Assembly (NCBI GenBank): GCA_964351525.1
Contig: CAYGOD010000002.1
Coordinates: forward strand, 422,327-486,326
Origin: an uncultured Bdellovibrionales bacterium
Lineage (GTDB): Bacteria > Pseudomonadota > Alphaproteobacteria > Micavibrionales > GCA-2720935
Length of the DNA: 64,000 nucleotides
Direction of reading: 5' to 3'
Below are positions 679-39,400 of this stretch, one piece after another. Every line of letters starts with the position of its first letter. The first letter of the stretch is position 1. Made by a program: the position numbers and the translations under genes. The notes under the pieces were generated by a model that was not told where the DNA came from, did no database searches, and was given only the letters and a program-made list of their open reading frames with translations.

Positions 679-1965
679 CTATTCTACCTTACGTGATTTG
701 TTCTTTTTGTCAAAGAGGTGAGGGATTAAAATTTTTGCTAATGCGTCTGAATTTATTGAAAATAAGCCATCAACGACTTGTTCTGTATTCGCGCCGTCAC
801 TTAAGGGAATTTTTGCCATATAAGCGGCACATAAAATCCCGCCATAGCGACGCGCAAAATCGAGGCGCGTTGGGATAAGACCTGAAATTTTTAACGTACC
901 AAAGGCGCGGGCAATATCGGCGTTTTCTTGTGGGTCACCGCCAGCGGGCATGACCAAATAAGGCGATAAGGACGTTGATTTTAGCGTGATTGCCAATTCT
1001 TTCATTGCATCCATGTCAAAAGGATTTGTGCCAGCACTATCGATAATAATTTGATCGGCATCCGCATGCATAGCGATGGCCTCTTTAAGAGTAGGCAGGT
1101 CTTCGGCTTCGATTAGAGGAATATCCAAAACATCGGTAAAGGCCTTTAATTGTTCTAATGCACCAGCCCGCTTTGTATCGGTAGAAATAACAACAACATT
1201 TAATTTATTCATGACGCCGCGCGCAGCAATTTTTGCGGCTGTCAATGTTTTGCCAGCCCCAGGCGCACCAATTAAAATGATCGGTTGATCAAAAGATTCG
1301 CGTGGTAAGGGTGCATAATTATAAACCCGGTCAAGCGCACCAGAAAGGGCAGCGATTGTTTCTTGTTCGTCACCATTGCTGGCGGCGGATATAATCATAT
1401 CAATGATATCGGCTGGGACATTGTGACGCAACAAACCCTCAGTGATGGGTTCAATAAATCCATATTCTTGTAAATCGCCCGCGTCATCTTCTGCCATTTC
1501 CCAATCAAAGAAATCAAAATCTTCGGTGAACTCTTCTTCATCATCTTTAATGGCAAACGCATTCTCAAAATATGCTTCTTCAGCGTCATCAATAATGTCT
1601 TCTTTGTCCGATGTTAAACTGCGATCTGGCCTGTCCAAATTAAGATCTGCATCATCAAACATGTCATTATTATCATGCTCATTATTGTAATCGCGGCTCT
1701 CTTTTAAGAAACTATCGAACCGTTCCTCTAATGTCACATGCAAGGCATCTACCGATTCTTCATCATCATAATCCCAGTGATCTTCGCCAAAATCGAGGGG
1801 TGCTTCTTGCTCTAATGTGATTTCTTCGATAGCAGCGGTGACACGGAATTTTTTATCGGCCTTATCTTCGCGCGTAGAAATTATGATCGCGTCTTCGCCC
1901 ATGGCCTCTTTTACAAGGGCCATAGCCTGCGTCATTGTATCTGCTTCGAATGATTTTAATCTCAT
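679..1965 (-). CDS. flhF: FlhF, SRP-like flagellar GTPase
   Basis: 428-aa ORF. The C-terminal NG domain has GAPGAGKTLTAAKIAA (G1) and IIDSAGTNPFD (G3). It lies between flhA and flhG. The N-terminal half is extremely acidic. Confidence 0.9.
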   Translation of the reverse strand: MRLKSFEADTMTQAMALVKEAMGEDAIIISTREDKADKKFRVTAAIEEITLEQEAPLDFGEDHWDYDDEESVDALHVTLEERFDSFLKESRDYNNEHDNNDMFDDADLNLDRPDRSLTSDKEDIIDDAEEAYFENAFAIKDDEEEFTEDFDFFDWEMAEDDAGDLQEYGFIEPITEGLLRHNVPADIIDMIISAASNGDEQETIAALSGALDRVYNYAPLPRESFDQPIILIGAPGAGKTLTAAKIAARGVMNKLNVVVISTDTKRAGALEQLKAFTDVLDIPLIEAEDLPTLKEAIAMHADADQIIIDSAGTNPFDMDAMKELAITLKSTSLSPYLVMPAGGDPQENADIARAFGTLKISGLIPTRLDFARRYGGILCAAYMAKIPLSDGANTEQVVDGLFSINSDALAKILIPHLFDKKNKSRKVE

Positions 1966-2007
1966 AAAATTAATCTAGTCTCTATATCTGTATTTTTCAA
2001 AATATTT

Positions 2008-4155
2008 TTATTCTATCTGGCCTAATGTTTTGATCTTGGCTTTGGGATGAATTTCACTTTGTGCCATAACTGTTGTTTGTGGTCTAAAGCGCTCAATAAT
2101 TGATCGTACATAAGGGCGAATATAAGGGCTTGTTAAAAGAACAGGGTTTTCGCCTTGCGCTGCTAGTTGCTCATATTTCGCACGTACTTTTTGAATAAAA
2201 TCTTGTAGTTGGGATGGGGGCATAGAAAGACTTTTTTCATCGCCCTCACCAATGAGTGAGCCTGCGAACGCCGCTTCCCATTCACCTGATAATGTGATCA
2301 TTGGGATCATACCAAGAATGTTAGAATATTGATCACATAGCTGACGGGCCATACGACTGCGTACATGTTCTGTAATCATATTCACATTACGTGTTGCTTG
2401 TGCGCCTTCGGCAACGGCCTCAATGATTGCGGGTAAATCACGAATTGAAATACGTTCTGCTAATAAATTTTGTAGCACGCGTTGTAATGATCCAATAGTG
2501 ATTTGTGATGGGACAAGATCAGAGATCATTTTCTGATGGGCATCACTTAATTCATCCAATAATTTTTGTGTTTCTGTATAGGATAATAAATCCGCCATGT
2601 TATCTTTTACGACCTCTGTTAGATGTGTCGTAATAACGGTTGCTGGATCAACAACGGTAAGGCCGTTAAATTGTGCTTCTTCGCGATTTGCTTCTTCAAT
2701 CCACATGGCTGGTAGGCCAAAGGTCGGCTCGGTTGTTTTCTCGCCAGGTAATGTGATGGCTTTGCCAGAAGGGTCCATGCAAAGCAACATAGTTGGGCGC
2801 ACTTCAGAGCGTCCAGATTCAATCTCTTTTACCTTAACGGAATAGGCATTGGCGGGCAGTTGTAAATTATCTTGAATGCGCACAGAGGGCAAAACAAAGC
2901 CCATTTCTTCGGCGAGCTGACGGCGTAAACCTTTAACTTGTTCGGTTAGCTTTCCGCCGCTCTCTTTATTAACAAGGGGTAGTAAACCATAGCCCAGTTC
3001 AAGACGAATAATATCCATTGCCAATGTTTTTGAAATAGGTTCGTCGGCGGGTTTGGGTGGTGCTTTTGCGGCGGCTTCTTGAGCAGTCGTTTCTGCTGCT
3101 TCTCTATCTTGTTTGCGACCGCTTAAGAAAGCCATACCAGCAAGTGCCGCAGCAAGTGTTAAGAAGGGTAGAACAGGAAGTCCTGGTAAAAGAGCAAGGG
3201 CAATCATTAAAACGGCACTTAAACTCATGGCACGCGGGTAGTGACTTAGCTGACCGAAAACAGCCTTATCTGCTGAACCTTTTACGCCAGCTTTCGTGAC
3301 CAAAAGACCTGCGGCGATTGATACGATCAGCGCAGGAATCTGTGAAACCAAGCCATCACCAATTGTCAGCATCGTGTATGTTTTTGCTGCTTCGCCTAGG
3401 CTTAAATCCATTTGCGCCGTACCGATAATGATACCACCAATAACATTGATGAATGTAATCATTATTCCCGCAATGGCATCACCGCGAACAAATTTCGCGG
3501 CACCATCCATAGCACCAAAAAATGTGCTTTCTTGTTCTAATTCTGAACGGCGTCTTTTTGCGCCTCCTTCGTCAATCAGGCCTGATGATAAATCAGCATC
3601 AATCGCCATCTGTTTACCAGGCATCGCATCCAAGCTAAAACGTGCGGCAACCTCTGCAATACGTGTCGCACCCTTGGTAATAACAACGAAGTTTACAATC
3701 ACTAAAATCGTAAAAACGATGATCCCGATGATATAATTATTCCCCGTTAAAAAGCCCCCGAAGGCTTGAATAACGTCCCCCGCGGCATCTGTCCCATTGT
3801 GGCCTTCGCCTAAAATTAGACGTGTGGAGGCAAGGTTTAATGCCAAGCGTATCATTGTTGCGATCAACAAAATTGTTGGAAAAGAAGTAAATTCAAGTGA
3901 GCGTTGAATAAATAGAACCGTCATTAGAATCATCACAGAAAACGCCATAGAAAAGGCGAGTGAGGCATCCAATAACCAGCTAGGCATTGGTAAAATAAGG
4001 ACAACCAAGATGGCAATCATACCAAGGGCTAGCGCAACGTCACCACGAAAAACATTAGCGAAACTTAATCCAAAATTTAAAGGCGCAGAGCTGCCACCAC
4101 CAGTATTATTGGCGGGCTTATTATTACTGGATGGTGTTGGTAAATTATCTGTCAT
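2008..4155 (-). CDS. flhA: FlhA, flagellar type III export gate protein
   Basis: 715 aa. It has a polytopic N-terminal domain, a linker and the typical FlhA cytoplasmic domain (…VPLVNKESGGKLTEQVKGLRRQLAEEMGFVLPSVRIQDN…). Confidence 0.97.
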   Translation of the reverse strand: MTDNLPTPSSNNKPANNTGGGSSAPLNFGLSFANVFRGDVALALGMIAILVVLILPMPSWLLDASLAFSMAFSVMILMTVLFIQRSLEFTSFPTILLIATMIRLALNLASTRLILGEGHNGTDAAGDVIQAFGGFLTGNNYIIGIIVFTILVIVNFVVITKGATRIAEVAARFSLDAMPGKQMAIDADLSSGLIDEGGAKRRRSELEQESTFFGAMDGAAKFVRGDAIAGIMITFINVIGGIIIGTAQMDLSLGEAAKTYTMLTIGDGLVSQIPALIVSIAAGLLVTKAGVKGSADKAVFGQLSHYPRAMSLSAVLMIALALLPGLPVLPFLTLAAALAGMAFLSGRKQDREAAETTAQEAAAKAPPKPADEPISKTLAMDIIRLELGYGLLPLVNKESGGKLTEQVKGLRRQLAEEMGFVLPSVRIQDNLQLPANAYSVKVKEIESGRSEVRPTMLLCMDPSGKAITLPGEKTTEPTFGLPAMWIEEANREEAQFNGLTVVDPATVITTHLTEVVKDNMADLLSYTETQKLLDELSDAHQKMISDLVPSQITIGSLQRVLQNLLAERISIRDLPAIIEAVAEGAQATRNVNMITEHVRSRMARQLCDQYSNILGMIPMITLSGEWEAAFAGSLIGEGDEKSLSMPPSQLQDFIQKVRAKYEQLAAQGENPVLLTSPYIRPYVRSIIERFRPQTTVMAQSEIHPKAKIKTLGQIE

Positions 4156-4190
4156 TAGATATTAAATGACCCGTTTATCCTTGTTAAAAG

Positions 4191-5756
4191 TTATTTAGCT
4201 TTTGATTGATGGGCTTCTGGAATTTCCAAACCATCATCATTATATTGGCGTAATTTATTGCGTAATGTGCGAATTGAAATGCCTAAAATATTGGCAGCAT
4301 GGGTGCGATTGCCCAAACAATGATCCAAGGTATCAATGATTAAATCACGTTCTACATGGGCAACCGTACGACCAACAAGGGCAGAGGTTGCTGTATCTGG
4401 CGCACTCTCATTTGGCGCGGTTTCGACTGTTGCCGGTGTCGATGTACCAGCCACTTCATCATCACCAAACGGCGTTAACGAATCTGCAGAATAAGGATTG
4501 CCAGCCGCAACTGGCACAGCTTGTGCTGCTTGCGGTGTTGGATTATCAAGACCAGAACTATTCCCCAAAACGCCGCTCGATGAGGGCGGGGAACCATAAG
4601 GATTAGCTGGTGAAATTTGTTGTGTAGGTGCTTGGGCAGGTGTCGCCGGTATCGGTGCTTGACCAGCAAGGATAATCGCCTCTGGTTCAATATGATCTTC
4701 TGTTGAAATTAACACGGCGCGGTGCATTGTGTTTTCAAGCTCGCGGATGTTACCACGCCACACATGATTAAAAATTTTGTGCATAGCCCCTTCGGAAACT
4801 TGCTTAACAGGCATATCATTTTGACCTGCATATTTTTGGACAAAAAATGTAGTTAGTTTGGCCAAATCCTGACGACGTTCACGCAAAGGCGGCAATAATA
4901 AATTCACGACATTAAGGCGGAAATATAAATCCTCCCGAAAATTCCCGGCCATTACTTCGCGTTGTAAATCACGGTTACTGGTTGCCAACAAACGAATATC
5001 AACCTTGACTGGCTTACCGCCACCAAGGCGATCAATTTCTTTTTCTTGAATAGCACGCAGTAATTTCGCTTGTAATAGAGGGTGCATCTCACTCACTTCA
5101 TCAAGTAAAAGCGTGCCACCATCGGCCTCTTCAAATTTACCAATACGCCGCGCAACAGCACCGGTAAAGGCGCCTTTTTCATGACCAAATAATTCAGATT
5201 CAAGTAAATTTTCCGGAATTGCCGCACAGTTTACAGAGATAAAACGACCATTGACGCGAGGGCTGTTCTCATGAATAAAGCGCGCCATGACTTCTTTACC
5301 TGTACCTGATTCACCGGTAATTAATACGGTGGCGGTACTAGGTGCAATTTGTTTTGCCATTTTCATGACAGGGATCATCGCGGGATCATCGGCAATCATG
5401 GAGCGATCTTCTTGCGTAACGGCGGCTAAAACCGCAGCAATAAGCTCAGCATCAGGCGGCAAGGGAACATATTCTTTTGCCCCTGATTTAATTGCACGAA
5501 TAACAGATTGTTTGTCATTGCCAATACCACAAGCAACCACAGGAATGGCAATACGTTCTAATTTCAACTGATCGATAAATTGCTTCACATCTTCTTTAAC
5601 ATCAATCATGACTAACTCAATGCCGTCACCATTACGCAGGGCAATTAAGCCCTGTTCAATTGTTGTGGAATGCATGACTTTGGCACCGCGTGATAGTGCG
5701 ATTTTACCAGCGTCTGAAATATGACCTTCTAGATGTCCAATAATAAGAAGTTTCAT
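4191..5756 (-). CDS. flbD: Sigma-54-dependent transcriptional activator, FlbD-like (degenerate receiver + AAA+ + Fis-type HTH)
   Basis: Walker A GESGTGKE, the GAFTGA loop (ESELFGHEKGAFTGA) and a C-terminal HTH (GNRTHAANILGISIRTLRNKL). The N-terminus MKLLIIGHLEG lacks the acidic pair of phospho-receivers. Its position downstream of fliF-fliG-fliH-fliN matches the Caulobacter fliF operon, and fliX is present in the window. Confidence 0.85.
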   Translation of the reverse strand: MKLLIIGHLEGHISDAGKIALSRGAKVMHSTTIEQGLIALRNGDGIELVMIDVKEDVKQFIDQLKLERIAIPVVACGIGNDKQSVIRAIKSGAKEYVPLPPDAELIAAVLAAVTQEDRSMIADDPAMIPVMKMAKQIAPSTATVLITGESGTGKEVMARFIHENSPRVNGRFISVNCAAIPENLLESELFGHEKGAFTGAVARRIGKFEEADGGTLLLDEVSEMHPLLQAKLLRAIQEKEIDRLGGGKPVKVDIRLLATSNRDLQREVMAGNFREDLYFRLNVVNLLLPPLRERRQDLAKLTTFFVQKYAGQNDMPVKQVSEGAMHKIFNHVWRGNIRELENTMHRAVLISTEDHIEPEAIILAGQAPIPATPAQAPTQQISPANPYGSPPSSSGVLGNSSGLDNPTPQAAQAVPVAAGNPYSADSLTPFGDDEVAGTSTPATVETAPNESAPDTATSALVGRTVAHVERDLIIDTLDHCLGNRTHAANILGISIRTLRNKLRQYNDDGLEIPEAHQSKAK

Positions 5757-10482: not shown

Positions 10483-10729
10483 CCGTTCATATCCTTATAT
10501 GTGATGCATGATATCTCATGCGGCCCTTTTTATTTTTTATAAGGCCAATATAATTGTCTTTTTAGTTTGGGTCTCTAAGCACTTGGTTAAGGCTTAAATC
10601 ATTCTTGATTATGTGATCATTATTTTGATTAACTCGAATAATAATCACTTTGTCTTCACGAACAGCTCTGCTCATCTTCTCATGATAACAGGACTACTCT
10701 ACTATAATATATAACAAAATTTAACATTC

Positions 10730-10742
10730 GGCAAATTTTGCC
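10730..10742. promoter_or_regulatory. Dyad GGCAAATTTTGCC (GGCA-N5-TGCC), candidate FlbD-type enhancer/operator
   Basis: Perfect 6-1-6 palindrome in the fliF / flaG-like divergent intergenic region. The same half-sites recur at five other flagellar control regions. Confidence 0.35.
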
Positions 10743-10792
10743 CATCATTTTATGCATTTTTTTCGTGTTTTTTATCGATTATGTTCGAAACT

Positions 10793-10805
10793 GGGCATAT
10801 TTGCC
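10793..10805. promoter_or_regulatory. Dyad-like GGGCATATTTGCC (variant of GGCA-N5-TGCC)
   Basis: It lies about 60 bp from the first dyad. It reads as GGGC-N5-TGCC or GGCA-N4-TGCC, so it is imperfect. Confidence 0.25.
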
Positions 10806-10891
10806 TAATAATGTTCGATTTTTAGCCATATTCAAATAGTTAAGTGAGTCTTAATTATTATTTTAATCTTCTTGTATTTTTATACATATTC

Positions 10892-10919
10892 TTGACTTTT
10901 CCTCGTATTTTGCTATAAT
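10892..10919 (+). promoter_or_regulatory. Sigma-70-type promoter TTGACT-N16-TATAAT
   Basis: Near-consensus -35 (10892-10897) and perfect -10 (10914-10919). It lies about 185 bp upstream of the ORF starting at 11103. Confidence 0.5.
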
Positions 10920-11102
10920 AAAGATAGTAGGATGACTCTGACTGTAGCATTATATCATTACAGATTGGGCAGAGCACCAATATTGCAGAAGCAATGGTTA
11001 AAAGTTTTTATAAGCGGGGTCTTATAAAGCTATAGGTTCAAATAGGGGTATTTGTACCAATAGTATAAAAAAGCTTTTAATGTTAAACATAGGAAGTGTG
11101 TC

Positions 11103-11573
11103 ATGACTGATAATATTATCATACCATCATCTGTCGCCAGTGCGGGCGCTGCGTCTCTTAATATAAGAGCCGAGCAAGCTGTACAACAGCCGGTTGCAAC
11201 AAATGAGCAGCCTTCAGATTTTTCAAGAACAAACCCACCATTTGTTAGTCCGGCGATACGCCTCGACTATGAAACACAACAGGTGGTCTTAGAATTCCGT
11301 GATTCAATAAGTGGCGAAGTAGAGCGCCAAATTGAACCTAACAGCCGTATTGAGGCATATACACCGCCAACATCATCGGATCGTGCAGAAAATGTTGATA
11401 TTGAAATTTCTTCACAATCATCACCCCCCCCATCATCAGGGGCACAATCTGTAAATGCTCAAGATGTGTCAGTTCCTGAATCGTCTGGTAATAATTCCGC
11501 TGCGGCATCATCAGCATCAACGGTTGATCCACAAACACCGTTAGCAAGTGGTGATACATCATCCTTTGCGTAA
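11103..11573 (+). CDS. FlaG-like protein (Ser/Pro-rich)
   Basis: 156 aa. The segment IRLDYETQQVVLEFRDSISGEVERQIEP resembles the FlaG family core (…V.V.D..TGEVIRQIP). It has flagellar neighbours and contains a C8 tract at 11424-11431. Confidence 0.4.
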   Translation: MTDNIIIPSSVASAGAASLNIRAEQAVQQPVATNEQPSDFSRTNPPFVSPAIRLDYETQQVVLEFRDSISGEVERQIEPNSRIEAYTPPTSSDRAENVDIEISSQSSPPPSSGAQSVNAQDVSVPESSGNNSAAASSASTVDPQTPLASGDTSSFA

Positions 11574-11591: not shown

Positions 11592-11626
11592 TAAAAAAAA
11601 CGCCTCAATTACGAGGCGTTTTTTGT
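11592..11626. terminator. Bidirectional rho-independent terminator
   Basis: AAAAAAAACGCCTC-aattac-GAGGCGTTTTTT. The GC stem is flanked by an A-run and a T-run. It sits between convergent ORFs ending at 11573 (+) and 11645 (-). Confidence 0.75.
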
Positions 11627-11644
11627 GTTTTTAGCTAATCGCTT

Positions 11645-12367
11645 TTAGTGGTTCAATTTCGCGATACTTCTTTTAGGTGTCGCCTCAACCATATCAAAAA
11701 GTTTCTGAAGCTCTGCTTTTGAGACTAACGTAATTGTTGGACGCATGGGGATAAACGGCTTTTTATATTTAATTTTACGATAAAGGCCTTTATCAATCAC
11801 TTCGGAAACGGCATCTGGATTTATTAATAGGCTACGTTTGGATGCCATGGAAAAATCACGGTCATAGCCGCTATTGTCAATATTGGGGTTTAGGGCAGTC
11901 TTATTATATTGATCACGCAGATGTTTTTTAATGGCTTTTTTTGCTAATCTTCTTTTAATTGGATCTTGTTCTAGATGGCTGTCTTTCACTAGCTCGCCCG
12001 GGATTGAACCCTCTAGACCCTCAAGCTCGATCATATTCGGCAATACTTTTTGGATATCGGCAACGGTTGCTGTTTTTAATGTGATGATGACTTGTCTGTC
12101 AAGGTTAGAAAAACTGATTGTTAAGGCTGTTTCGTTTAATCCACTAGGAAAACCATTGATAACACTAATTCTGTCTGCAATTTTTGCTAACGGCACATAT
12201 TTTTCTGTGCCTGTCGGCAGTATTTGGCCGTCTCTATCTGCTAATGCTTGATGTAAAGGACTTGGTTTAGGCGTATAGATCAATGTTAATGCGTTGTTAT
12301 GGCTTGTAATAACGCCACCGTTGATCTGTAAAATACCGTCCCTTAAATAATCAATATATTCTTCCAT
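11645..12367 (-). CDS. Hypothetical protein (240 aa, soluble, basic C-terminal half)
   Basis: Long ORF with no overlap, 23 bp downstream of the 176-aa ORF. I recognise no family motif. Confidence 0.6.
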   Translation of the reverse strand: MEEYIDYLRDGILQINGGVITSHNNALTLIYTPKPSPLHQALADRDGQILPTGTEKYVPLAKIADRISVINGFPSGLNETALTISFSNLDRQVIITLKTATVADIQKVLPNMIELEGLEGSIPGELVKDSHLEQDPIKRRLAKKAIKKHLRDQYNKTALNPNIDNSGYDRDFSMASKRSLLINPDAVSEVIDKGLYRKIKYKKPFIPMRPTITLVSKAELQKLFDMVEATPKRSIAKLNH

Positions 12368-12390
12368 GGTCTATCCTTTTTTGAATGATT

Positions 12391-12921
12391 TTATAATGGT
12401 TTGTATGAGCTCGCTTTTATTGCGGTTGTTCTTTTATCTTTTGATAGTCCGAATAATTCCTCTAGCTCTTCAACACTGTCTAGTGAGGCAAACTCGCATG
12501 CTGGAAAATCAGCACTTAAGATGATCTTAGTATAACGTCCGTGGTCTTCTATGCGATCTATGGTATTTCTATTAATCAAGGCACGTTCAAAGGTAACGTA
12601 AGAACTATATGTTGCTATTGCTACTTCACGATATACGCCATCTAAGTGAACGGCAACGGCCTCTTCCATATTAGGGAGGTCAAAATATTCGGAGGGAATA
12701 GAAGCTGCCATGATGTCTATTTCAACAAAATCAGGCGATAGAGTTTTAAAATCATCTAGTGTCATCTGGTCTTTATTCATAAATTTCATGGGACCATCGT
12801 CTTTAAAACCAATAATTAAATAATCAGAATCAATGACATAGCCAATGTGTTGATTGACTTGATTATGGGGCATAGAGCGTTCCCAGAATTCACCACGAAA
12901 TGTTTCGTAATAACTATCCAT
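12391..12921 (-). CDS. Hypothetical protein (176 aa, soluble, acidic)
   Basis: The ORF is preceded by GAGGAG 7 nt upstream of the ATG and by a TTGACA-N17-TACATT-like promoter on the minus strand in 12922-13042. I recognise no family motif. Confidence 0.6.
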   Translation of the reverse strand: MDSYYETFRGEFWERSMPHNQVNQHIGYVIDSDYLIIGFKDDGPMKFMNKDQMTLDDFKTLSPDFVEIDIMAASIPSEYFDLPNMEEAVAVHLDGVYREVAIATYSSYVTFERALINRNTIDRIEDHGRYTKIILSADFPACEFASLDSVEELEELFGLSKDKRTTAIKASSYKPL

Positions 12922-13042
12922 AGCGGATCTCCTCAGTAAATAAATTATTTTGATATGTAATTATAATATGAAAATGTATCACGTGAAAGATGGCGTGTCA
13001 AATGATGGCGGGCAGTCAATATTTAGGCAAATATTTTATATA

Positions 13043-14440
13043 TTAGGCATGATTAGGCAGCGTTTCTAAGAGCAGAATGTAATCATCTTTTTGAAATAGT
13101 TTTGCAGAGCCATAGGAGATATCTTTAATTCCGTTTTTTGTGCGATTAAAAATGACGGTCTCATATAAAGTGCTATAGCCGCTGTCCTTCGTGATAACAA
13201 GATCATTAGTGTGACTTTTTTCTATTTCTGGGGCTTTCTCAAAGGGCTTTGGGGTGTTTAAGTTGGTAACGAAGATTGTCTCACCGAGAGGCATAAAATA
13301 ATACGATCCCCAATGATTATAAAATTCCCCGCAATAAGATGATAGCTTGGTATTCGCACGGTAATGCTTTTGAAAGTGGTCGATAATATGCCATAGGCCA
13401 TTTTGTAGCATTGCCGTATCTGCAGCATAGCTGTTTGTCATGATTGAAATCACAATATTGGCTTTTGGATTAATATAGGTACGAGACAAATGCCCAGGCA
13501 TTCCACCTGTATGACCATTTAGACGATATCCTCCAACTATGTTATGAACAACACCAAGCCCATAGCCAAAATTCGGCTGTCTTTGATCAACACCAAAATA
13601 TTTTGACAGCATCTTTTCTTTTAATCTATCGGATAAAAGCAAACCCGTTCCAATCATCAGTGCGCTATAAAAACGACACAGGCTTTCTGGGTTACTACAG
13701 ACACCAGCAGCGGCAATCATGCCTTTCGTGTCAATATTACTGTTTATAGGGATAATCTTTTTTGTTCCTGGAGCATATTTATTGTGCCCTGCACTATAGG
13801 GCGCATTGTTCGGATCATAGCTTGCACAAATTCTATTTAGCTCTAAAGGTTTAAAAATATGTGTTGTGATATAATCTTCAAATGAAAGCCCTGAAACATC
13901 TTCAAGTATATATCCCAGCAGGGCATAGGCAAAATTCGAATATCTAAATATTTTTCCAGGTGTGGTTAAGAGCGCCGATGTTTCATAAAAAGATAAAATT
14001 TCATCTTTGGTAGGAAAGGCGCGCAGACAGCTAAAAAATGTTGCATCATCACCATCACGCGATAATCCAGAGCTGTGGCTTAAAAGATGTTCAATTGTGA
14101 CATCGTTTATCTTTGTATCTGGATTGCTTTTTAATTGTGGAATGAAATAGGTCAATTTATCCGTGAGTGACAGCTTATTGGCCTCAACCAGTTGTAATAT
14201 TGATAGTGCTGTAAAGCTTTTTGTATGGGAGGCGGACAGAAACAAATGATTGGGCGTTAATATTTCTTTTGTGTCATGATTGGCAAAGCCAAAGCTTTTA
14301 TTATAAACAAGACTATCGTCGTGCATAATTGCAATGCTGTGGCCGGGGACTTGTTCATTTAAATCTGTTTGGCGCTGTAGCCATAAATCGCAGAAATCAA
14401 TTGCGGCATTAAGAGCGGAAATATTAAGATTTTCTGTCAC
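13043..14440 (-). CDS. Beta-lactamase-fold serine hydrolase (class C / esterase-like), apparently no signal peptide, GTG start
   Basis: 465 aa with the SxxK motif in LSASHTKSFTA and YxN in RYSNFAYALLG. There is an extra C-terminal domain of about 110 aa. The N-terminus MTENLNISALNAAIDF is not hydrophobic. Confidence 0.8.
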   Translation of the reverse strand: MTENLNISALNAAIDFCDLWLQRQTDLNEQVPGHSIAIMHDDSLVYNKSFGFANHDTKEILTPNHLFLSASHTKSFTALSILQLVEANKLSLTDKLTYFIPQLKSNPDTKINDVTIEHLLSHSSGLSRDGDDATFFSCLRAFPTKDEILSFYETSALLTTPGKIFRYSNFAYALLGYILEDVSGLSFEDYITTHIFKPLELNRICASYDPNNAPYSAGHNKYAPGTKKIIPINSNIDTKGMIAAAGVCSNPESLCRFYSALMIGTGLLLSDRLKEKMLSKYFGVDQRQPNFGYGLGVVHNIVGGYRLNGHTGGMPGHLSRTYINPKANIVISIMTNSYAADTAMLQNGLWHIIDHFQKHYRANTKLSSYCGEFYNHWGSYYFMPLGETIFVTNLNTPKPFEKAPEIEKSHTNDLVITKDSGYSTLYETVIFNRTKNGIKDISYGSAKLFQKDDYILLLETLPNHA

Positions 14441-14458: not shown

Positions 14459-14980
14459 TTACAATTCTACATCAAAATCCATTAATGGCTTTGCGGGCTG
14501 TGTGTTGTCCGATTGGACTTCGGGTGTCTGTTGTGCATATGGATTTGGGGCGACAGGCGTTTGCTGTGCTGCCTTTAAGGCGTTGTTGCGAGAATTACGG
14601 ATACTGTCTTGAAGGCCGGCGGCGATGTTTCGATTAATATTGATCAAAACATCAAACTTTTCTGCTGTACCATCGGCGCGGATATCAAGCGTGCGTTTAA
14701 AAACAAATAAACCAAGATTTGCAATATTATTACGAATGGCGACCTCTAGGCCCGTATCGTCTTTTTGCATTTCAGCGGTGAAGATCGCCCATAATTGTTG
14801 ATTGGTTGTTAAGGCTTCGTCTAATTGATCGATAGTATGTGATCCCCAGTTGTCTTTGAGGGCCTGTAAACGTTCTGCGGCCTTAATCAATGCGCGCACC
14901 TCAATCTCTCGCGGGTCACTCATCGAGGCTTTATTGGTTTTATCATAGGCGCCAAGCGCTTTGGTATAATCGTTAGACAT
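14459..14980 (-). CDS. flaF: FlaF, flagellin synthesis regulator (with a Q/P-rich C-terminal extension)
   Basis: The N-terminal 120 aa are FlaF-like (…DPREIEVRALIKAAERLQALKDNW…NQQLWAIFTAEM…). It lies directly downstream of flbT. Confidence 0.85.
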   Translation of the reverse strand: MSNDYTKALGAYDKTNKASMSDPREIEVRALIKAAERLQALKDNWGSHTIDQLDEALTTNQQLWAIFTAEMQKDDTGLEVAIRNNIANLGLFVFKRTLDIRADGTAEKFDVLININRNIAAGLQDSIRNSRNNALKAAQQTPVAPNPYAQQTPEVQSDNTQPAKPLMDFDVEL

Positions 14981-15004: not shown

Positions 15005-15394
15005 TTATGCCGTGTTGCCAGCCATAAGATCTGTTTCATAGTTGATTAGATCTTGGGCCGTTTTTAATGCCTTGTAATAGTGGTTCATTAATAAATGTTC
15101 ATTGATAAGAGTAATTAGTGGAATTGTGCTGGGCGCGGCATCTTGAACATCTTTGATAAGTTCAAAATAAGTGGCATGCAGATCTTCGGGCGTTGTTGAT
15201 AAATACATTAATTGAATGGCAAAATAAATTTTCTTGCACGGCGTATCGGCAGCATCTTCTGTGATAATATCTTTTTCACGCAAAATTGGTGTATCGCCCT
15301 CTATGTAGAGGCGCGCACGATTTTTGTCATTACGAACAACGGCTTGTCCGATGACAACACGTTCATTTGGTTTTAGATCAATGACAAGAGCCAT
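15005..15394 (-). CDS. flbT: FlbT, flagellin mRNA-binding translational regulator (copy 1)
   Basis: MALVIDLKPNERVVIGQAVV…PILREKDIITEDAADTPCKKIYFAIQLMYL is a classic FlbT N-terminus. Confidence 0.9.
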   Translation of the reverse strand: MALVIDLKPNERVVIGQAVVRNDKNRARLYIEGDTPILREKDIITEDAADTPCKKIYFAIQLMYLSTTPEDLHATYFELIKDVQDAAPSTIPLITLINEHLLMNHYYKALKTAQDLINYETDLMAGNTA

Positions 15395-15666
15395 AATAAT
15401 TCGTCCTTTTTATTTTGTGTGGATAACCCACTCTATTAAGTTTACGCGAGAAGGGGTTAAAGAATGCTTTATGTGTTTGCGATAAGCGCAAGATCATCTC
15501 GTGTTTTAGGGCGCGCTATTTGAGAACACTAAAAGTATGATAACGCAAAAGGAGATTCTTGGAAATCGAAAATCAGAAGTTAAAAATGGAAAACCAGCGA
15601 GATTTCTCTCGCTGGTTAAATCCAATTTGGCTTCCTCGAAAAACCGGACTTTTATAAAGTACGATC

Positions 15667-16476
15667 TTAGAAGAGAGACAACACGGCCTGTTGAGCCTGA
15701 GAGGCCAAAGACAATGATGTAACACCAAGCTGCTGTCTTGTCTGCAAGGCAAGCAAGTTAGCACCTTCTTCGTTTTGGTCAGCCAATGTAAGCTTATCAG
15801 AACCTTCTAAAAGGTTATTAATAATACCTTTTGTGAAGTCTTCACGGTTCTGAATTGTTGTTAAGTTAGAACCAAATACACGTGCTTGTGAACGTAAGTT
15901 AGCAAGCGCTGTATCAATTTCAGCTAAACCAGCATCAAGTAAGGCATCTGTTGTAAAGTCAGCAGCAGTTGCTATACCAACACCAGCGGCATCATATGTG
16001 ACACCTGTAACTGTGATTGTACTTGATGAATCTTCGTTGAAGTTTACGACAAGGTTATCACCGTCCAACAAGTTAACACCACGGTAACCAGTATCCTGGA
16101 TCGCTTGGTCAATTTGTGTACGAACAGCATCATAATCAACTTCTAATGCAATGGCTTCGGCAGAACCAACACCAGCATCACGTGCTGCATTAGCTAGACC
16201 TTCAGCTTGTTCAACAAGGCTAGTGATTAACTCAATACCCTCATCAGCGGCTTGAAGTGTTTGTACAGCCTGGCCCATACCATCTAAAAGACGGCTAAGG
16301 TCACTGGCACGGTTGTCAAGACCCTGTGACGCGAAGAATGCATTAGCATCATCAAGCGCAGAGTTAACTTTACGACCAGTCGACAAACGCAGCTGGGTTC
16401 TGTCAGTTAGGCTTTGTGTATTTTGAAGGGATAATAGGTTACTACGAATCGCAGAACCGAGAACAATATCAGACAT
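15667..16476 (-). CDS. Flagellin (short alphaproteobacterial type, copy 1)
   Basis: 269 aa. The conserved N-terminus is LSTGRKVNSALDDANAFFASQ and the C-terminus is LALQTRQQLGVTSLSLASQAQQAVLSLF. Confidence 0.95.
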   Translation of the reverse strand: MSDIVLGSAIRSNLLSLQNTQSLTDRTQLRLSTGRKVNSALDDANAFFASQGLDNRASDLSRLLDGMGQAVQTLQAADEGIELITSLVEQAEGLANAARDAGVGSAEAIALEVDYDAVRTQIDQAIQDTGYRGVNLLDGDNLVVNFNEDSSSTITVTGVTYDAAGVGIATAADFTTDALLDAGLAEIDTALANLRSQARVFGSNLTTIQNREDFTKGIINNLLEGSDKLTLADQNEEGANLLALQTRQQLGVTSLSLASQAQQAVLSLF

Positions 16477-16780
16477 ATCAAATTTCCTTTCCTAGGAGGT
16501 TGTGTCTATTTACTTTTAGTTACGAGGAGATACTTTCCTCATACTTCTATCATCGCATGTAATCATTAATAAATGGTTACAATTATGAGAGGTCTTATTT
16601 CTTTTTTGATTTTTATGATGAGATCGCTAAAGAAACTGTATGTATGCGCTTATCTAATAAGAATATATGAGTATAGAGCGCCAACTTACCCTGTTTATGA
16701 TAACCGCTTTAAAATATTTTTCAATACTAAATAAAGCTCTTGAGACATGTTTGTTATGCTTATAGCAAATCAAACGAGAT

Positions 16781-16820
16781 AAAAAAACGGGATGCTTATT
16801 CTTTAAGCATCCCGTTTTAG
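16781..16820. terminator. Strong hairpin terminator (bidirectional form) after flbT copy 2
   Basis: AAAAAAACGGGATGCTTA-ttctt-TAAGCATCCCGTTTT. It has a 12-bp perfect stem with A/T runs on both sides. Confidence 0.8.
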
Positions 16821-16991
16821 TATTATCATATGACTTCTTGTCATTATACATTGTGCAAACACATTCTGCGTTCTTGTATGATTGAATTCATGGCATACCG
16901 TTAAAAACGTTTGATCCAGCCTGAATTTCTTTTTATTAAGAAAGGGACATTCTGTCTTTTCTTATCTTAAGCCTTTATATACAGCGCTTAA

Positions 16992-17402
16992 TTATTGTGC
17001 CGCTTGTCTTGCTGAGTCTAGTTCACGATTAATCAATTCTTTCTCGTGAGCCAAAAGGTTCTTAGTTTCTTTTAGAGCGCGGTAAAGATCACCTTCTAAA
17101 ATTCTTTCACCAATTGATAAGAAGAAGAACGTTGTTGATGGCGCGGCATCTTGAATTTCGCGTACAAGCTTGAAATATTCTTCATAAAAAGGTGTTGGGT
17201 CTTTTGACAGATACATAAGCTGTACAACTAAATATAGTTTTTTACAGGCTGTATCTGCTTTTTCTGGTGTCATAACATCCTTTTCACGCAAGATTGGCGC
17301 ATTGCCTTGGATGTTAATTTTTGTGCGGTGGTCAGATGCCGATATAACAGCGTCGCCAACAACAACTTTTTCGTTTGGTTTTAGATCAATAATAAGTCCC
17401 AT
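16992..17402 (-). CDS. flbT: FlbT (copy 2)
   Basis: MGLIIDLKPNEKVVVGDAVI…PILREKDVMTPEKADTACKKLYLVVQLMYL. By eye it is roughly half identical to copy 1. Confidence 0.9.
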   Translation of the reverse strand: MGLIIDLKPNEKVVVGDAVISASDHRTKINIQGNAPILREKDVMTPEKADTACKKLYLVVQLMYLSKDPTPFYEEYFKLVREIQDAAPSTTFFFLSIGERILEGDLYRALKETKNLLAHEKELINRELDSARQAAQ

Positions 17403-17469
17403 AATGTGGTACTCCTTTTATATTGTGTTATTAACAGATGTAATCGTTTTTTATAGATGACGATTAGTT

Positions 17470-18288
17470 TTAGAAGAGGTTCAAGACGGCCTGATCTGCC
17501 TGAGATGCTAATGACAATGATGTCACACCAAGCTGCTGTCTTGTCTGTAGGGCAAGCATATTTGCACCTTCTTCATTTTGGTCAGCCAAGGTTAACTTGT
17601 CTGATCCTTCTGTTAAGTTGTTAATTAATCGCTCTGTAAAGCTTTCACGATTTTGAATAACATTTAAGTTTGATCCAAAAACACGGGCTTGTTGACGTAG
17701 GCTGGCAAGGGCTGTATCAAGCTCTGCTAAGTTTGCGCCAATGGTCGCATTCGTAGAAAAGTCAGCGGCTGTTACAATACCAAGACCAGCAGAGTCAAAT
17801 GTTACGCCTGTTAATGTGATGGTACTGGTTGATGTTTCGTTAAACTCAACCAATAGATCATCACCATTAAGGAGGTTAATCCCGCGATAGCCCGTATCTT
17901 GAACAACTTCATTGATTTGTACGACAATTGCGGCATAATCTGCTTGTAAGGCAACAGCGGCTGTTGAGCCGGCGCCTTCGTCACGCGCTGTATTGGCAAT
18001 CGCTTCGGCTTGTTCAACCAAACTTGTTAAAAGAGTAATACCTTCGTCGGCATTCTTAATTGTTTGGATTGATTGTCCCATACCATCCAATAGACGGCTA
18101 AGGTCACCCGCACGGTTGTTCAGTGCTTGAGAGGCGAAAAATGCATTCGCATCATCGAGGGCTGAGTTAACTTTACGACCTGTTGATAGACGTATTTGTG
18201 TTCTATCTAGGAAGTCTCCTGTAGTTTGCAAGCTCAATAGGTTTGAGCGTAATGCGGCTGATAAAGCAATATCGTTGGCCATTTTCAT
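17470..18288 (-). CDS. Flagellin (copy 2)
   Basis: 272 aa. The termini are nearly identical to copy 1 and the central region has diverged. Confidence 0.95.
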   Translation of the reverse strand: MKMANDIALSAALRSNLLSLQTTGDFLDRTQIRLSTGRKVNSALDDANAFFASQALNNRAGDLSRLLDGMGQSIQTIKNADEGITLLTSLVEQAEAIANTARDEGAGSTAAVALQADYAAIVVQINEVVQDTGYRGINLLNGDDLLVEFNETSTSTITLTGVTFDSAGLGIVTAADFSTNATIGANLAELDTALASLRQQARVFGSNLNVIQNRESFTERLINNLTEGSDKLTLADQNEEGANMLALQTRQQLGVTSLSLASQADQAVLNLF

Positions 18289-36407: not shown

Positions 36408-39400
36408 ATGATAAAACATAAAAAACAGATAATAAAAAGGCGCGTTTTAACGTCTTTGTTTGTGGCGGGTCTTTGTGGCGGTCTGTTTTTTATCATGCCT
36501 GATGAAATAAAAATATCACCAGCAATGGCACAAGAACGCGGACAGATTAAGATTATTGATTTGTCAAAACCGACATCTAGAAACACCTCAAAGAACCCCG
36601 TTCGTTCATCATCTTCAATATCTACGGTTGCTAAAACGGCGATTAATGTGCGGACAGCCCATCATCCTAGTTATGATCGTATTGTTTTTGATTGGGGGAG
36701 GCGTACTGCTGTTATGCGCTCTGATGATAAAACAACAGCGGGCGATAATCGTGTACGTCTGAAATTTGATTATCCAGGGTCGTTGCCTGCATCAGTTACA
36801 AACAAAGAAAATTTACCGCGTGTGAAAAGCTTAAAGATTTTAAACACCAATCCCTTAGAGATTGAAATGGTCTTAAATAATGCTTATATGAAACGCTCTG
36901 AATTGGGGTCTCGTATTGTTTTTGATTTTTATGACATTGAACAGGCTGTGCCTAATGCAGGGCGTTCTGTGACAGACACAGCGTCACCTATTGAACAGCC
37001 TACCCTTGAAAAAAAGCAGTCGGCCACAAGAGATAAGTCAGGCGCACAAATTCTCATTGTGCGCGGTAATAAGGCAGCAGAGCCAGCGCCTATGTTGAAA
37101 GCAGATAATGTATCAAATGCGAACGAAGGACCGCTGGTGAAAGCCCAGATAGATGAAGCGGTTAATGACGATGAAGTTAATGATGATGCAGATATATCAG
37201 CGCCATCTCTATCGAATGTTTTAGAAAAGAGACAGGTCGGTTTTGAACGCACATCAAGGGCGGTACCGCAACCGAATGTATCGCTTGATGATATTGCGAT
37301 GAATGATGAAAATTTATCACCGCGTGAGCGTGCTGTTCAAAATGCTATTCGCAAGGCAGGTCAAGATATTATTGGCTTTAATCAATCTCGTTTGAAGGTG
37401 GGGGATAGTGTCTCTATTTCTTCTTTGAAGCCATTAAAGCTAGCTGTTTTTAGACGGGGAAACATTTTATGGATTGTACAATCAGATAAGCGAAAATCGG
37501 TACCGCCTGTTGTTAATAGCGCACAGCAAATTAACGTTAATCCGTTAGACGATCAAAGCGGTAACGCGCAGGCATGGCGTTTTCCAATTGATGAAGCCGC
37601 GCATTTCAATGTGGTGAATAATGAATTCTCATGGGATGTTCAGGTGACAGACAGCTATGTCCAAGATCCCTCCCTTGATATCCGTTCGGAAAAAATCGAT
37701 TATCGCGGGCAGGAAACATATGCCCTGATCATGAATGTTGAGCGTCCATCAACGGTGCTTTCATTTAGTGATCCTGTATTGGGGGATAAGATATTTGCCA
37801 TACCGTTGCATCAAGATCGTTTGAAGGTCAACATTGCCCAAACCCTGCCTGAGTTTTCATTTATCCCCGCGGATGTTGGTGTTGTGGTGAAACCACAAAC
37901 GCAAACATTAGAGCTGTTTTTTGAAAATACGGACCTATTTATCACTAATCGTGAGGGGCTAATGGTATCAGATGCCTTAGCCTCATCTTCTATGAGCTTT
38001 TCTAAGAAAAATAAAGGTGATAACAAAAGCCAAGCACGCTTATTTGATTTAGAAAACTGGTTTGTGACAACGCCGCAAGATTTCCAAGACCATCGCCGTG
38101 TCTTTGAAAATCAAGCCGCTGTAACATCGGATCAGAATGAGCGTATTCGTAATATAATTGATTTGGCCAAGCTGTATTTCGTTAATGGGTTTGGGTCAGA
38201 GGCTGCTGGTTTAATGCGTATGGCAAAACAAGATGATAAGCGTCTTGTCGATAATATAACATTTTTGGCACTTGAGGGGGCAGCTCTGTCATTAGCTGAT
38301 CAATATGATAAGGCAGCAATATTACTTGAAGATGGTCGTATCTTTGATCAACCAGAAATCGCCCTTTGGCGTGGTTATTCTAACGCTCGCCAAGGAAAGT
38401 GGAGAAAAGCCTATGATGATTTTGCCGCTACGGGTAATTTGGTCATGGAATATCCAGATACCTTAAAACCACGTCTTTTAAAAATGATGGCAGAGGCCGC
38501 ATTAAATGTTCAAGATGTTATCAATGCCGAGAACTTAATCAATGTGTTCGATGGTCTTGATAACGCAACTAGAAAAGATGACTCTGCGACACAATTCTTT
38601 AAGGGTAAATTGGCTTATTTAAACAAAGACTATGATAAGGCGAAGCCATATTTACAGGCGGCATCTAACGGCTCTGATCGTTATTACCGCGCAAAGGCGG
38701 CTTTTGAGTTCTTAAAGCTTCAAGAACAAACGGATTCAATTACAACCGAAGAAGCGACCGAAATTTTGGAACGTTTGCGTTATATATGGCGCGGTGATGA
38801 TTTTGAAATTAACGTGACAGAGCATTTGGGCGATTTCTATATTGATAAGGGTCAATATCGTGAGGGTCTTAATACACTGCGTTCCATTATTCCTTTGTTG
38901 GAAAATGATCAAGAAAAAACTGAAGAAATAACACAAAAACTAACCCAAACATTTGGGGCATTGTTTATCGAAGATCGCGCGGATAAGAAATTACCGCCGT
39001 TAACGGCCTTGGCCCTTTATAATGAATTTAGTGAGCTAACGCCAAGCGGTGCAGACGGTGATCGCGCCATTCAGAATTTGGCGGAACGTATGGTTGATGT
39101 TGATCTCCTTGACCGTGCCGCATCCTTACTTGAACACCAAATTAAATTCCGTTTAGAGGGTGAAGAAAAGCAACGTGTTGCAACACGTTTGGCGGCTATT
39201 CGTCTGATCGATAGTTCACCAACGGCAGCAATCGAAGCGCTGGATCGTTTGGAAGGTGAAATCTTGCCAGATGATCTCAAAGAACAAGGTTTGCTTTTAC
39301 GTGCGCGCGCCTTGTCACAATTGGGACGCCCTGATGATGCTATTAAAATTTTATCTGGACTGAACAGCGAAGATGCACATCGTTTGAATATCGACACAAA

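Follow-up and report, generated by a model that had tools for sequence, protein, structure and literature searches.

A probable lineage-specific insertion directly downstream of flaF encodes a serine hydrolase with a predicted lipocalin-like domain and two proteins of an unnamed family

The stretch of 64,000 nucleotides analyzed here (the window) contains a flbT-flaF operon of the type known from Caulobacter, Brucella and Agrobacterium, with its canonical flanks: flagellin-flbT-flaF, a convergent small gene and fliF-fliG. It differs from the canonical alphaproteobacterial operon by three extra genes located between flaF and the convergent gene, which are found in this lineage only. This raises the question whether the three genes are part of the flagellar system, form a system of their own, or are accessory genes that were added to a conserved locus. 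The three minus-strand, co-directional genes occupy the interval between flaF and a bidirectional terminator, and their open reading frames and coordinates agree with the original prediction. The features of the region are as follows:

11103-11573, plus strand: convergent 'flaG-like' gene, Ser/Pro-rich, 156 aa, conserved in position; downstream boundary of the block
11595-11624, both strands: bidirectional intrinsic terminator with a 12-13 bp stem
11635-12425, strand not applicable: segment without counterpart in the sister species (blastn against L001-L004 and junction alignment)
11645-12367, minus strand: P3 gene, 240 aa
12391-12921, minus strand: P2 gene, 176 aa
12922-13042, minus strand: AT-rich spacer of 121 nt between the hydrolase and P2 genes, with a sigma-70-like site and a GAGGAG ribosome-binding site
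13043-14440, minus strand: hydrolase gene, 465 aa, GTG start
14459-14980, minus strand: flaF (Pfam FlaF 1e-29; NCBIfam FlaF 4e-28); upstream boundary of the block
15005-15394, minus strand: flbT (Pfam FlbT 4e-40)

The spacers were as predicted: 18 nt from the flaF stop codon to the GTG of the hydrolase gene, 121 nt between the hydrolase and P2 genes and 23 nt between the P2 and P3 genes. The terminator, predicted at 11592-11626 and found on both strands at 11595-11624, is common to the block and the convergent gene and is kept in the sister species described below. It is the only terminator in the flaF-to-P3 stretch, and no terminator-like hairpin was found on the minus strand of the 12922-13042 spacer. 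The P2 gene is preceded by a GAGGAG and the P3 gene by an AAGGA ribosome-binding site. The hydrolase gene starts with GTG without a clear Shine-Dalgarno sequence, the flaF stop codon is 18 nt away (2 nt in the sister species) and no terminator separates the two genes. Translation of the hydrolase is therefore probably coupled to that of flaF, and the protein would be produced alongside the late flagellar regulators. P2 and P3 would be translated from their own ribosome-binding sites and perhaps transcribed from their own promoter. A promoter had been predicted in the spacer between the hydrolase and P2 genes, and a sigma-70-like TTGACA-17-TACATT site with a TG is present at 13001-12973, but the region holds no more promoter-like sites than shuffled sequences do (19 versus 17.8), so that the site counts as no more than a pattern match. 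For the convergent gene, the label 'flaG-like' is based only on its conserved position and its resemblance to counterparts that tblastn detected in the related genomes L015, L019, L027, L031, L040 and L045; no Pfam or NCBIfam family, FlaG (PF03646) included, matched 11103-11573 at E up to 1.

The distribution of the three genes was examined in a scan anchored on FlbT, which returned 80 genomes, 26 species representatives among them sharing the flbT-flaF-...-fliF arrangement. None of the 26 carries the hydrolase, P2 or P3 (tblastn), nor are they present at any of the 80 flbT loci, and the block was accordingly rejected as a core or conserved flagellar accessory. The gap between flaF and fliF has a median of 1180 bp in the 26 genomes versus 3977 bp here. 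In the closest syntenic genome (L015; FliF 71% and FliG 82% identical) flaF abuts the convergent gene at a distance of 114 bp, the arrangement expected where the block is absent. Other, unrelated genes occupy the same slot in L094, L047, L017/L020 and L021. Outside the window, only one sister species has any of the three genes, namely two of them. These comparisons support a lineage-specific gain in a conserved flagellar locus and bear out the original view of a non-flagellar insertion that is not found throughout the flagellated relatives. On balance, we regard the block as probably a lineage-specific accessory insertion in a variable slot that follows flaF directly, and as neither a conserved three-gene system nor a core flagellar component. 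The slot would extend from the flaF stop codon to the terminator shared with the convergent flaG-like gene.

The sister species, whose FliF is 96% identical to that of the window, has the order flaF-hydrolase-P2-terminator without P3. The segment 11635-12425, which holds the end of the P2 coding region, the 23-nt spacer and the entire P3 gene, is replaced there by about 55 bp. It is bracketed by an imperfect 12-nt direct repeat (11639-11650 and 12411-12422, 11/12 identical), a repeat that could be due to chance. P2 is more conserved between the two species (82-84% identity) than the hydrolase (68%). The dS of about 1 corresponds to saturated synonymous divergence; the hydrolase has a dN/dS of about 0.10 and P2 one of about 0.23. 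Both genes are under purifying selection, and these low ratios (about 0.1 and 0.2) indicate that both proteins are functional.

The block had also been suspected to be compositionally lighter than its surroundings. Its genes have a GC content of 37.5-38.5% versus a mean of 42.2% (sd 2.6) for the genes of the window (z -1.5 to -1.9), but several ordinary genes of the window, flbT included, are equally low, and GC3 and synonymous codon choice are native (z -0.2 to +0.2). A compositional argument for recent horizontal transfer was rejected for this reason, and composition is weak evidence for a recent foreign origin. An anti-phage defence system or other mobile 'cargo' of recent horizontal origin would account for a block with slightly low GC content in a conserved locus and for two proteins without a known family. 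The native codon usage and GC3 argue against it, as does the age of the block, which is old enough to be common to two species with saturated dS. Integrase or transposase genes, tRNA genes and long flanking repeats were not found around the block, and the window gave no matches in Rfam and tRNA scans. None of the three proteins matched a family of PADLOC-DB 2.0 at E up to 1, and P2 and P3 had no match in PHROGs and were not found in viral contigs. We consider this explanation highly improbable; the defence or toxin/immunity character suggested by the original prediction found no support.

The first gene encodes a serine hydrolase of family S12 (PF00144; 202.7 bits versus a cut-off of 27, E 1e-59, residues 29-339). 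The catalytic motifs SxxK (S71-H-T-K74), YxN (Y167-S-N169) and HxG (H310-T-G312) are intact, and all six catalytic residues are invariant in a 24-sequence alignment and kept in the sister species. An AF2 model (pLDDT 88, pTM 0.89) predicts a PBP/beta-lactamase-like domain (residues ~1-360) followed by a lipocalin-like eight-stranded C-terminal barrel (~365-460), with eight strands and a terminal helix in residues 371-460 (pLDDT ~90). The full-length model matched 2qmi, 7spn, 9sn1, 6ksu and 8fek in Foldseek searches. In the hydrolase, P2 and P3 no hydrophobic segment approaches a transmembrane or signal sequence, the maximal 19-residue Kyte-Doolittle mean being at most 1.0, compared with 2.8 for FliF. 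The protein is a signal-less serine hydrolase of the beta-lactamase fold with an extra C-terminal domain, just as predicted. Class C beta-lactamases and AmpH-type periplasmic PBPs are alike in catalytic fold and motifs, but the hydrolase differs from both in its extra C-terminal domain, the missing signal peptide and NCBIfam scores far below the cut-offs. Assignment as a class C beta-lactamase (bla_class_C, 63 versus 415 bits; no hydrophobic N-terminus) or as AmpH (80 versus 266 bits) was rejected. In PHROGs the hydrolase matched the phage tail lysin phrog_382 (1.8e-54).

The best PDB match of the hydrolase is the CubicO-type S12 D-peptidase Pab87 of Pyrococcus abyssi (2QMI; sequence E 3e-31, full-length fold E 9e-27). 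Both proteins consist of an S12 PBP-like domain with SxxK, YxN and HxG motifs followed by a C-terminal eight-stranded lipocalin-like barrel, both lack a signal peptide, and their lengths are similar (447 aa for Pab87 and 465 aa for the hydrolase). They differ in that they share only 23-24% identity, that their C-terminal domains have no detectable sequence similarity, and that Pab87 is found in a peptide transport context whereas the hydrolase is found in a flagellar one. CubicO proteins, which are self-compartmentalising D-peptidases, are characterized by the motifs YAEAF/L, FFYLN and ERY (PMC2651629). These are absent from the hydrolase, which has D-D-A-T-F and F-R-Y-S-N at the equivalent positions (phmmer against 2qmi) and no ERY in its C-terminal domain. 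The C-terminal lipocalin domain, a further CubicO characteristic, is present in the hydrolase as a predicted structure only (466-473 Foldseek columns to 2qmi). The Pab87 octamerisation domain (Pab87_oct, PF13969) was not detected in the hydrolase at E up to 1; some of its homologues (P0015 and P0068) contain it. The same domain order is found in the esterase IS11 (7SPN), the peptide cyclases SurE (6KSU) and Ulm16 (8FEK) and the DL-peptidase Lip3 (9SN1), with full-length Foldseek E-values of 1e-24 to 1e-19 and 17-20% identity. The relatives that share this architecture thus include esterases, peptide cyclases and D-peptidases. Their substrates differ (esters, NRPS-bound peptides), identity is low (17-20%) and no NRPS genes are located near the hydrolase gene, so that substrate specificity cannot be transferred from them. 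By analogy with Pab87 and the other S12-lipocalin enzymes, the protein would be a cytoplasmic acyl-serine hydrolase and neither a beta-lactamase nor a periplasmic PBP, probably acting on small D-amino-acid-containing peptides or esters such as peptidoglycan-derived stem peptides.

P2 and P3 were predicted to be distant paralogues, and this similarity proved to be beyond chance. BLASTP aligns them with an E-value of 8e-8 (25% identity over 136 aa), and distant family members match P2 and P3 independently; one of these, P0113, matches P3 with E 3e-10 and P2 with E 2e-11 in pairwise comparisons. The two proteins are homologous. A recent tandem duplication of P2 giving rise to P3 was rejected, since the similarity between the two does not exceed that of either to distant members of the family. 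P2 is a soluble, acidic protein (pI 4.5), and the C-terminal half of P3 is lysine-rich (pI 10.0, 25 K+R), both in line with the original description. P2 has one close homologue (84% identity), and a profile search identified eight small distant members of 165-209 aa (P0113-P0118, P0120 and P0121; E 7e-13 to 4e-4). One long protein also matched the profile, probably spuriously. For P3, a search of 5.8 billion clusters returned only P3 itself, and the core-subgroup alignment of the P2 family found nothing in metagenomes and viral contigs. By exhaustive profile search the family is small and unnamed, with proteins of 165-240 aa. Its invariant residues are E67, P76, N117, D126, G128 and Y130 in P2 numbering, the last three forming a D-x-G-x-Y motif. 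P3 keeps every one of them and has insertions at the N-terminus and, lysine-rich, in the C-terminal half.

Neither protein could be placed in a known family, as had been noted before: no match was obtained in Pfam, NCBIfam, PADLOC, PHROGs or PDB sequences. Eleven P2-family members shared nothing in Pfam at E 10, and the family profile gave chance-level matches only against PDB sequences. The AF2 model of P2 (pLDDT 81.5, pTM 0.74; first 13 residues predicted to be disordered) had no significant counterpart among solved structures or in BFVD, a library of predicted viral structures. The four-stranded C-terminal sheet of P2 carries an L-I-N-P-x-x-V motif. Phage 'flagellar and swarming motility' proteins of 60-70 aa (FlbD/SwrD, PF06289) align with this sheet, though not significantly (Foldseek E 0.13-0.6), and comparison with a real phage FlbD-like sequence gave an hhalign probability of 0.5% (E 0.12), by which FlbD/SwrD was rejected as the identity of P2. 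A LytTR domain, the only other weak resemblance in fold, also aligns with the sheet without significance (E 0.57). We infer that P2 and P3 represent a new family of soluble alpha/beta proteins located in the cytoplasm.

The genomic contexts of homologues elsewhere bear on whether the three genes form one system. P2-family genes and flagellar genes were absent from all 38 metagenomic loci with hydrolase homologues. Distant P2-family members occur in unrelated contexts, without an S12 hydrolase and never in a flagellar one. In two distant bacteria (two contigs) the gene of a P2-family member, P0114 or P0120, comes first and is followed by a gene for a homologous protein of ~340 aa with an HExxH motif; these two neighbour proteins had no match in PDB sequences. 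Behind a third member of the family, the next gene encodes an ankyrin protein instead. A single conserved system of three genes, as originally considered, is not supported: the sister species is without the 240-aa protein, and co-occurrence of hydrolase and P2-family genes in unrelated genomes was not observed (0/38).

The arrangement of a hydrolase gene followed by one or two small paralogues, with a copy number that varies between species, would also fit a toxin-immunity or protease-inhibitor module in which the hydrolase is harmful and the P2-family proteins are cognate immunity proteins or inhibitors, similar to the immunity-paralogue arrays of polymorphic toxins. The patchy distribution, fast divergence and HExxH and ankyrin neighbours elsewhere are consistent with such a module, but the 38 hydrolase loci without a P2-family neighbour and the HExxH pairs, in which the small gene comes first and not second, are not. 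The hydrolase has no toxin-delivery or secretion domain, PADLOC gave no match, and P2 is better conserved than its supposed toxin. Moreover, other organisms have S12-lipocalin proteins as ordinary enzymes of their cytoplasm (PMC2651629). We regard a toxin-immunity module as quite unlikely. For the accessory insertion that we prefer, the most economical guess, and a weak one, is that P2 and P3 are protein-binding partners or regulators of hydrolases. A more far-reaching version, to which we attach little probability, is that the family is a new class of small cytoplasmic hydrolase partners (inhibitor, immunity factor or adaptor), paired with an S12 enzyme here and with HExxH metallopeptidase-like proteins elsewhere. 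In this lineage the pair may then have been brought under the control of the late flagellar operon, with the result that a peptidoglycan-type peptidase lacking a signal peptide is produced alongside the flagellum and, possibly, uses it for export.

Since the hydrolase gene is kept next to flaF in two species at saturated dS, a flagellum-linked role could be considered. The hydrolase, and perhaps P2 and P3, would then serve or use the flagellum, by trimming or modification of flagellin or peptidoglycan or through flagellar type III export. Both FlgJ and the non-flagellar Yersinia protein YplA are exported through the flagellar type III apparatus. The apparent coupling to flaF fits this role, as does the combination of a missing Sec signal with relatives that act on peptidoglycan peptides (Pab87, the R61 DD-peptidase and phrog_382). 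The local FlgJ homologue consists of the rod-binding domain only (113 aa), and the disordered first 13 residues of P2 would also be compatible. However, all 26 other genomes of the same architecture are without the genes, none of the three genes has homologues close to flagellar genes elsewhere, the sequences contain no recognisable export signal, and the FlbD-like resemblance of the P2 C-terminal sheet is not significant. A flagellum-linked module is therefore, in our view, unlikely.

If the block is an accessory insertion, it shows that a conserved flagellar supercluster can accommodate cargo specific to a lineage at one particular site, the 3' flank of flaF. Genes inserted there would, judged from their spacing, inherit the expression of the flagellar operon. 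A small, unnamed protein family has also come to light, for whose confidently predicted fold neither solved structures nor BFVD gave a significant match. Neither the cargo in the flaF slot nor the P2/P3 family alters current understanding. Both would carry more weight if the hydrolase or P2/P3 were secreted in a flagellum-dependent manner, or if the hydrolase and its neighbours represented a new kind of hydrolase-partner pair.

An ORF scan and a hairpin search reproduced the predicted arrangement of three co-directional genes behind flaF, including their coordinates, their spacers and the bidirectional terminator that closes them off. The features of the locus, with P2 and P3 denoting the second and third of the three genes, are:

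15005-15394, minus strand: flbT (ORF scan; FlbT confirmed by Pfam and NCBIfam)
14459-14980, minus strand: flaF (ORF scan; FlaF confirmed by Pfam and NCBIfam)
13043-14440, minus strand: serine hydrolase, 465 aa (ORF scan)
12391-12921, minus strand: P2, 176 aa (ORF scan)
11645-12367, minus strand: P3, 240 aa (ORF scan)
11595-11624, both strands: bidirectional intrinsic terminator (perfect 12-bp-stem hairpin between A and T runs)
11103-11573, plus strand: convergent ORF, 156 aa, called flaG-like by position (ORF scan)

The spacers are 18 nt (flaF-hydrolase), 121 nt (hydrolase-P2) and 23 nt (P2-P3). The terminator also ends the convergent ORF, and no terminator-like hairpin was found before it on the minus strand from flaF to 11624. 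Flagellin was confirmed by Pfam and NCBIfam as well, and around the three genes the window is a single large flagellar supercluster, with flhF, flhA, a sigma-54 activator gene, motA, fliN, fliH, fliG and fliF on one side and two flagellin-flbT pairs, flgE, flgD, fliK, a FlgJ-like rod-binding gene, flgI, flgH, flgA, fliL and fliM on the other. The two flagellin-flbT pairs lie in tandem (15005-18288, minus strand); the FlbT paralogues share only 46% identity, and each is kept at 91-96% in the sister species. Two large ORFs on the plus strand lack a Pfam domain at E 1e-5, one of 1134 aa (36408-39812) directly behind the fliL/fliM part of the cluster and one of 885 aa (61116-63773). The Ser/Pro-rich flaG-like protein has no match in Pfam or NCBIfam, and measures 156 aa versus 223 aa in the sister species (L001 704-1375), with 78% identity across the shared part.

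The predicted TTGACA-17-TACATT promoter is present at 13001-12973, but it is only a candidate because similar sites in the AT-rich region are no commoner than in shuffled sequence (19 observed versus 17.8). The region's best sigma-70-like site (TTGACT-16-TATAAT with TG, 10892-10919, plus strand) lies in a 620-bp non-coding AT-rich stretch of about 37% GC (10483-11102) that separates fliF and the convergent gene. Good ribosome-binding sites precede P2 (GAGGAG) and P3 (AAGGA). The start codon of the hydrolase is GTG, with no ribosome-binding site upstream, and in the sister species this GTG is 2 nt past the flaF stop. Start codon, missing ribosome-binding site and the 2-18-nt spacing suggest that translation of the hydrolase is coupled to that of flaF.

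Metagenome contigs of this sister species, about 80% identical to the window in DNA, show the same gene order (flbT, flaF, hydrolase, P2, terminator, convergent gene, fliF). Protein identities are 99% for FliG, 96% for FliF, 87% for FlaF, 82-84% for P2 and 68% for the hydrolase. Window positions 11635-12425, including all of P3, have no counterpart there, and about 55 bp are found instead. An 11-of-12 direct repeat lies at both edges of the P3 segment (11639-11650, TCGCTTTTAGTG; 12411-12422, TCGCTTTTATTG), which is compatible with a short-homology deletion and may also be due to chance in AT-rich DNA.

A FlbT-anchored scan with one genome per species (185,579 species representatives, the window's own genome not included) yielded 80 loci, the best FlbT match being 68% identical. 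The nearest genomes, all of them MAGs, bear the labels Rickettsiales, Micavibrio or unclassified Alphaproteobacteria. Tblastn with all local proteins placed FlaF beside FlbT in 78 of the 80 loci and fliF downstream in 26, and detected the hydrolase, P2 or P3 in none. The distance from flaF to fliF is 3977 bp in the window versus a median of 1180 bp (range 774-4658) in the 26 loci. The closest genome, L015, a MAG labelled uncultured Rickettsiales with 40% GC, has the identical gene order (FliF 71%, FliG 82% identity), and only 114 bp lie between the stop codons of flaF and the convergent gene. L015 also shows the flagellin-flbT duplication. The proposal of an acquired block in a conserved locus is supported by the 26 syntenic loci. 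In a few further alphaproteobacterial lineages the post-flaF slot holds other genes, unrelated to these (L094 10987-14688; L047 10838-11815; L017 3387-4010 and L020 8859-9482; L021 10927-11385), one occupant being an unassigned 207-aa protein that is near-identical in two MAGs. Insertions thus recur at the 3' flank of flaF, and the data agree with accessory genes having been gained by this lineage between the stop codon of flaF and its terminator.

The lighter composition that had been suspected holds for GC content, which is 37.5-38.5% in the three genes (z -1.5 to -1.9; mean of window genes 42.2%, sd 2.6), but not as a mark of recent foreign origin. Relative to the window genes, z-scores are -0.6 to -1.4 for GC3 and -0.2 to +0.2 for synonymous codon likelihood, and since flbT and other native genes are equally GC-poor, the block is compositionally native or fully ameliorated. 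In the comparison with the sister species synonymous sites are saturated (dS about 1), and dN/dS amounts to about 0.10 in the hydrolase and 0.23 in P2, 0.12-0.13 in flagellin and the flaG-like gene, and 0.01-0.04 in the core flagellar proteins FliG, FliF, FliH, FliN, MotA, the sigma-54 activator and FlbT2. The hydrolase and P2 are real, constrained genes that evolve faster than the flagellar core.

The first gene encodes the expected signal-less serine hydrolase: it matches PF00144 (E 1e-59), has neither a hydrophobic N-terminus nor a membrane segment in its sequence, and an alignment of 24 sequences shows no variation at the motif residues of SxxK (S71, K74), YxN (Y167, N169) and HxG (H310, G312). 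Among solved structures the closest in sequence is Pab87 of Pyrococcus abyssi (2qmi, E 3e-31), with only the N-terminal domain aligned. A confident alignment-based AlphaFold2 model (pLDDT 88, pTM 0.89) shows residues 371-460 as eight strands and a terminal helix, and the extra C-terminal domain that had been noticed is predicted to be lipocalin-type. The top Foldseek hit in PDB is 2qmi over the full length (E 9e-27), followed by IS11 esterase, Lip3 DL-peptidase, SurE and Ulm16. All five are PBP-like enzymes with such a domain. The study in which the CubicO family was defined names three motifs specific to it, YAEAF/L, FFYLN and ERY (PMC2651629). Because these are not conserved in the hydrolase and the Pfam domain Pab87_oct was not detected, the enzyme appears CubicO-like in architecture but is no demonstrable CubicO member. 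The protein is far under all NCBIfam cut-offs for class C beta-lactamases, AmpH, PBP4B and D-aminopeptidase. Its architecture, judged by that of Pab87 (PMC2651629), suggests a D-stereospecific peptidase or esterase of the cytoplasm and not a beta-lactamase. After the sister-species protein (68% identical), the next relative (44%) comes from a metagenome fragment of 1.5 kb that has no flaF upstream, and all others are at 33% identity or less. The enzyme adds a new and divergent member to an already known architecture.

P2 and P3 have no match in Pfam, NCBIfam, PADLOC or PHROGs. A word-indexed search of 5.8 billion clusters returned one P2 homologue, 84% identical, and none for P3 beyond itself. 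The suggested distant paralogy was strengthened: P2 and P3 align with E 8e-8, and an exhaustive search of 1.84 billion representatives with a profile built from P2, P3 and the P2 homologue retrieved eight further small proteins (165-209 aa, E 7e-13 to 4e-4). A 2144-aa match (P0119, E 2.4e-4) covers only about 19 positions and is probably spurious. The homology is real, since distant members match both proteins independently (e.g., P0113 with E 2e-11 to P2 and 3e-10 to P3). Recent tandem duplication was rejected, as the mutual score of 36 bits does not exceed those with distant members (up to 48 bits); the two are old paralogues or independently acquired genes. Six residues are invariant in the family alignment (E67, P76, N117, D126, G128, Y130), which also has a conserved stretch L-I/V-N-P-x-x-V-x-x-V-x-D-x-G-x-Y-R-x-I. 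AF2 gave a good model of P2 (pLDDT 81.5, pTM 0.74), for which Foldseek returned nothing significant in PDB (top LytTR domain, E 0.57) or BFVD (top E 7e-3; several FlbD-like phage proteins, E 0.13-0.6). Kinship with FlbD is not supported, as hhalign of a real FlbD-like phage sequence on the conserved motif reached a probability of only 0.5%. P2 and P3 belong to a new, small uncharacterised family and are predicted to be soluble cytoplasmic proteins.

Distant family members occur in unrelated contexts: beside a symporter and ankyrin or Macro-domain proteins (L007), adjoining a SOUL-domain gene (L011), overlapping an ankyrin-repeat gene (L012), within a run of ORFans (L133), and, for the weakest member, between rplV and rpsC (L013/L014). 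In L012 (region 320-1473) the ankyrin-repeat gene lies downstream, and in L007 (region 895-2876) two lie upstream, with the Macro-domain gene; such neighbours hint that the carriers may be host-associated bacteria. The weakest member, P0121 (E 4e-4), sits at an odd S10-operon insertion place between the L22 and S3 genes (regions L013 64-1486 and L014 15-1422), and the profile may have picked it up falsely. Behind both P0114 and P0120 (regions L007 5317-6915 and L133 5372-7125) comes a gene for a HELGH-motif protein of some 340 aa; these two proteins are homologous to each other (BLASTP E 1e-6), a sub-threshold Peptidase_M78/IrrE match exists for one, and the arrangement may be a conserved gene pair. 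The only functional hint, and a thin one, is that in three lineages a hydrolase-like gene adjoins a family member (S12 here, HExxH in the other two).

The block had further been proposed to be a small undescribed system, and the P2/P3 pair was to be sought with the hydrolase in unrelated genomes. None of 38 metagenome loci from a scan with the hydrolase alignment holds flagellar or P2-family genes. Because composition differs between the sister species, P3 being absent from one, the parts never co-occur elsewhere, and defence and toxin-immunity libraries yielded no match, the three genes are not a conserved system, and the proposal of an undescribed one is not supported. Their post-flaF position would place inserted genes under flagellar-operon transcription. 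A flagellum-linked role, through this co-expression or through export via the flagellar apparatus, a route that FlgJ and some virulence factors are known to take, is not favoured by the comparative data. The whole block is an ordinary accessory islet.
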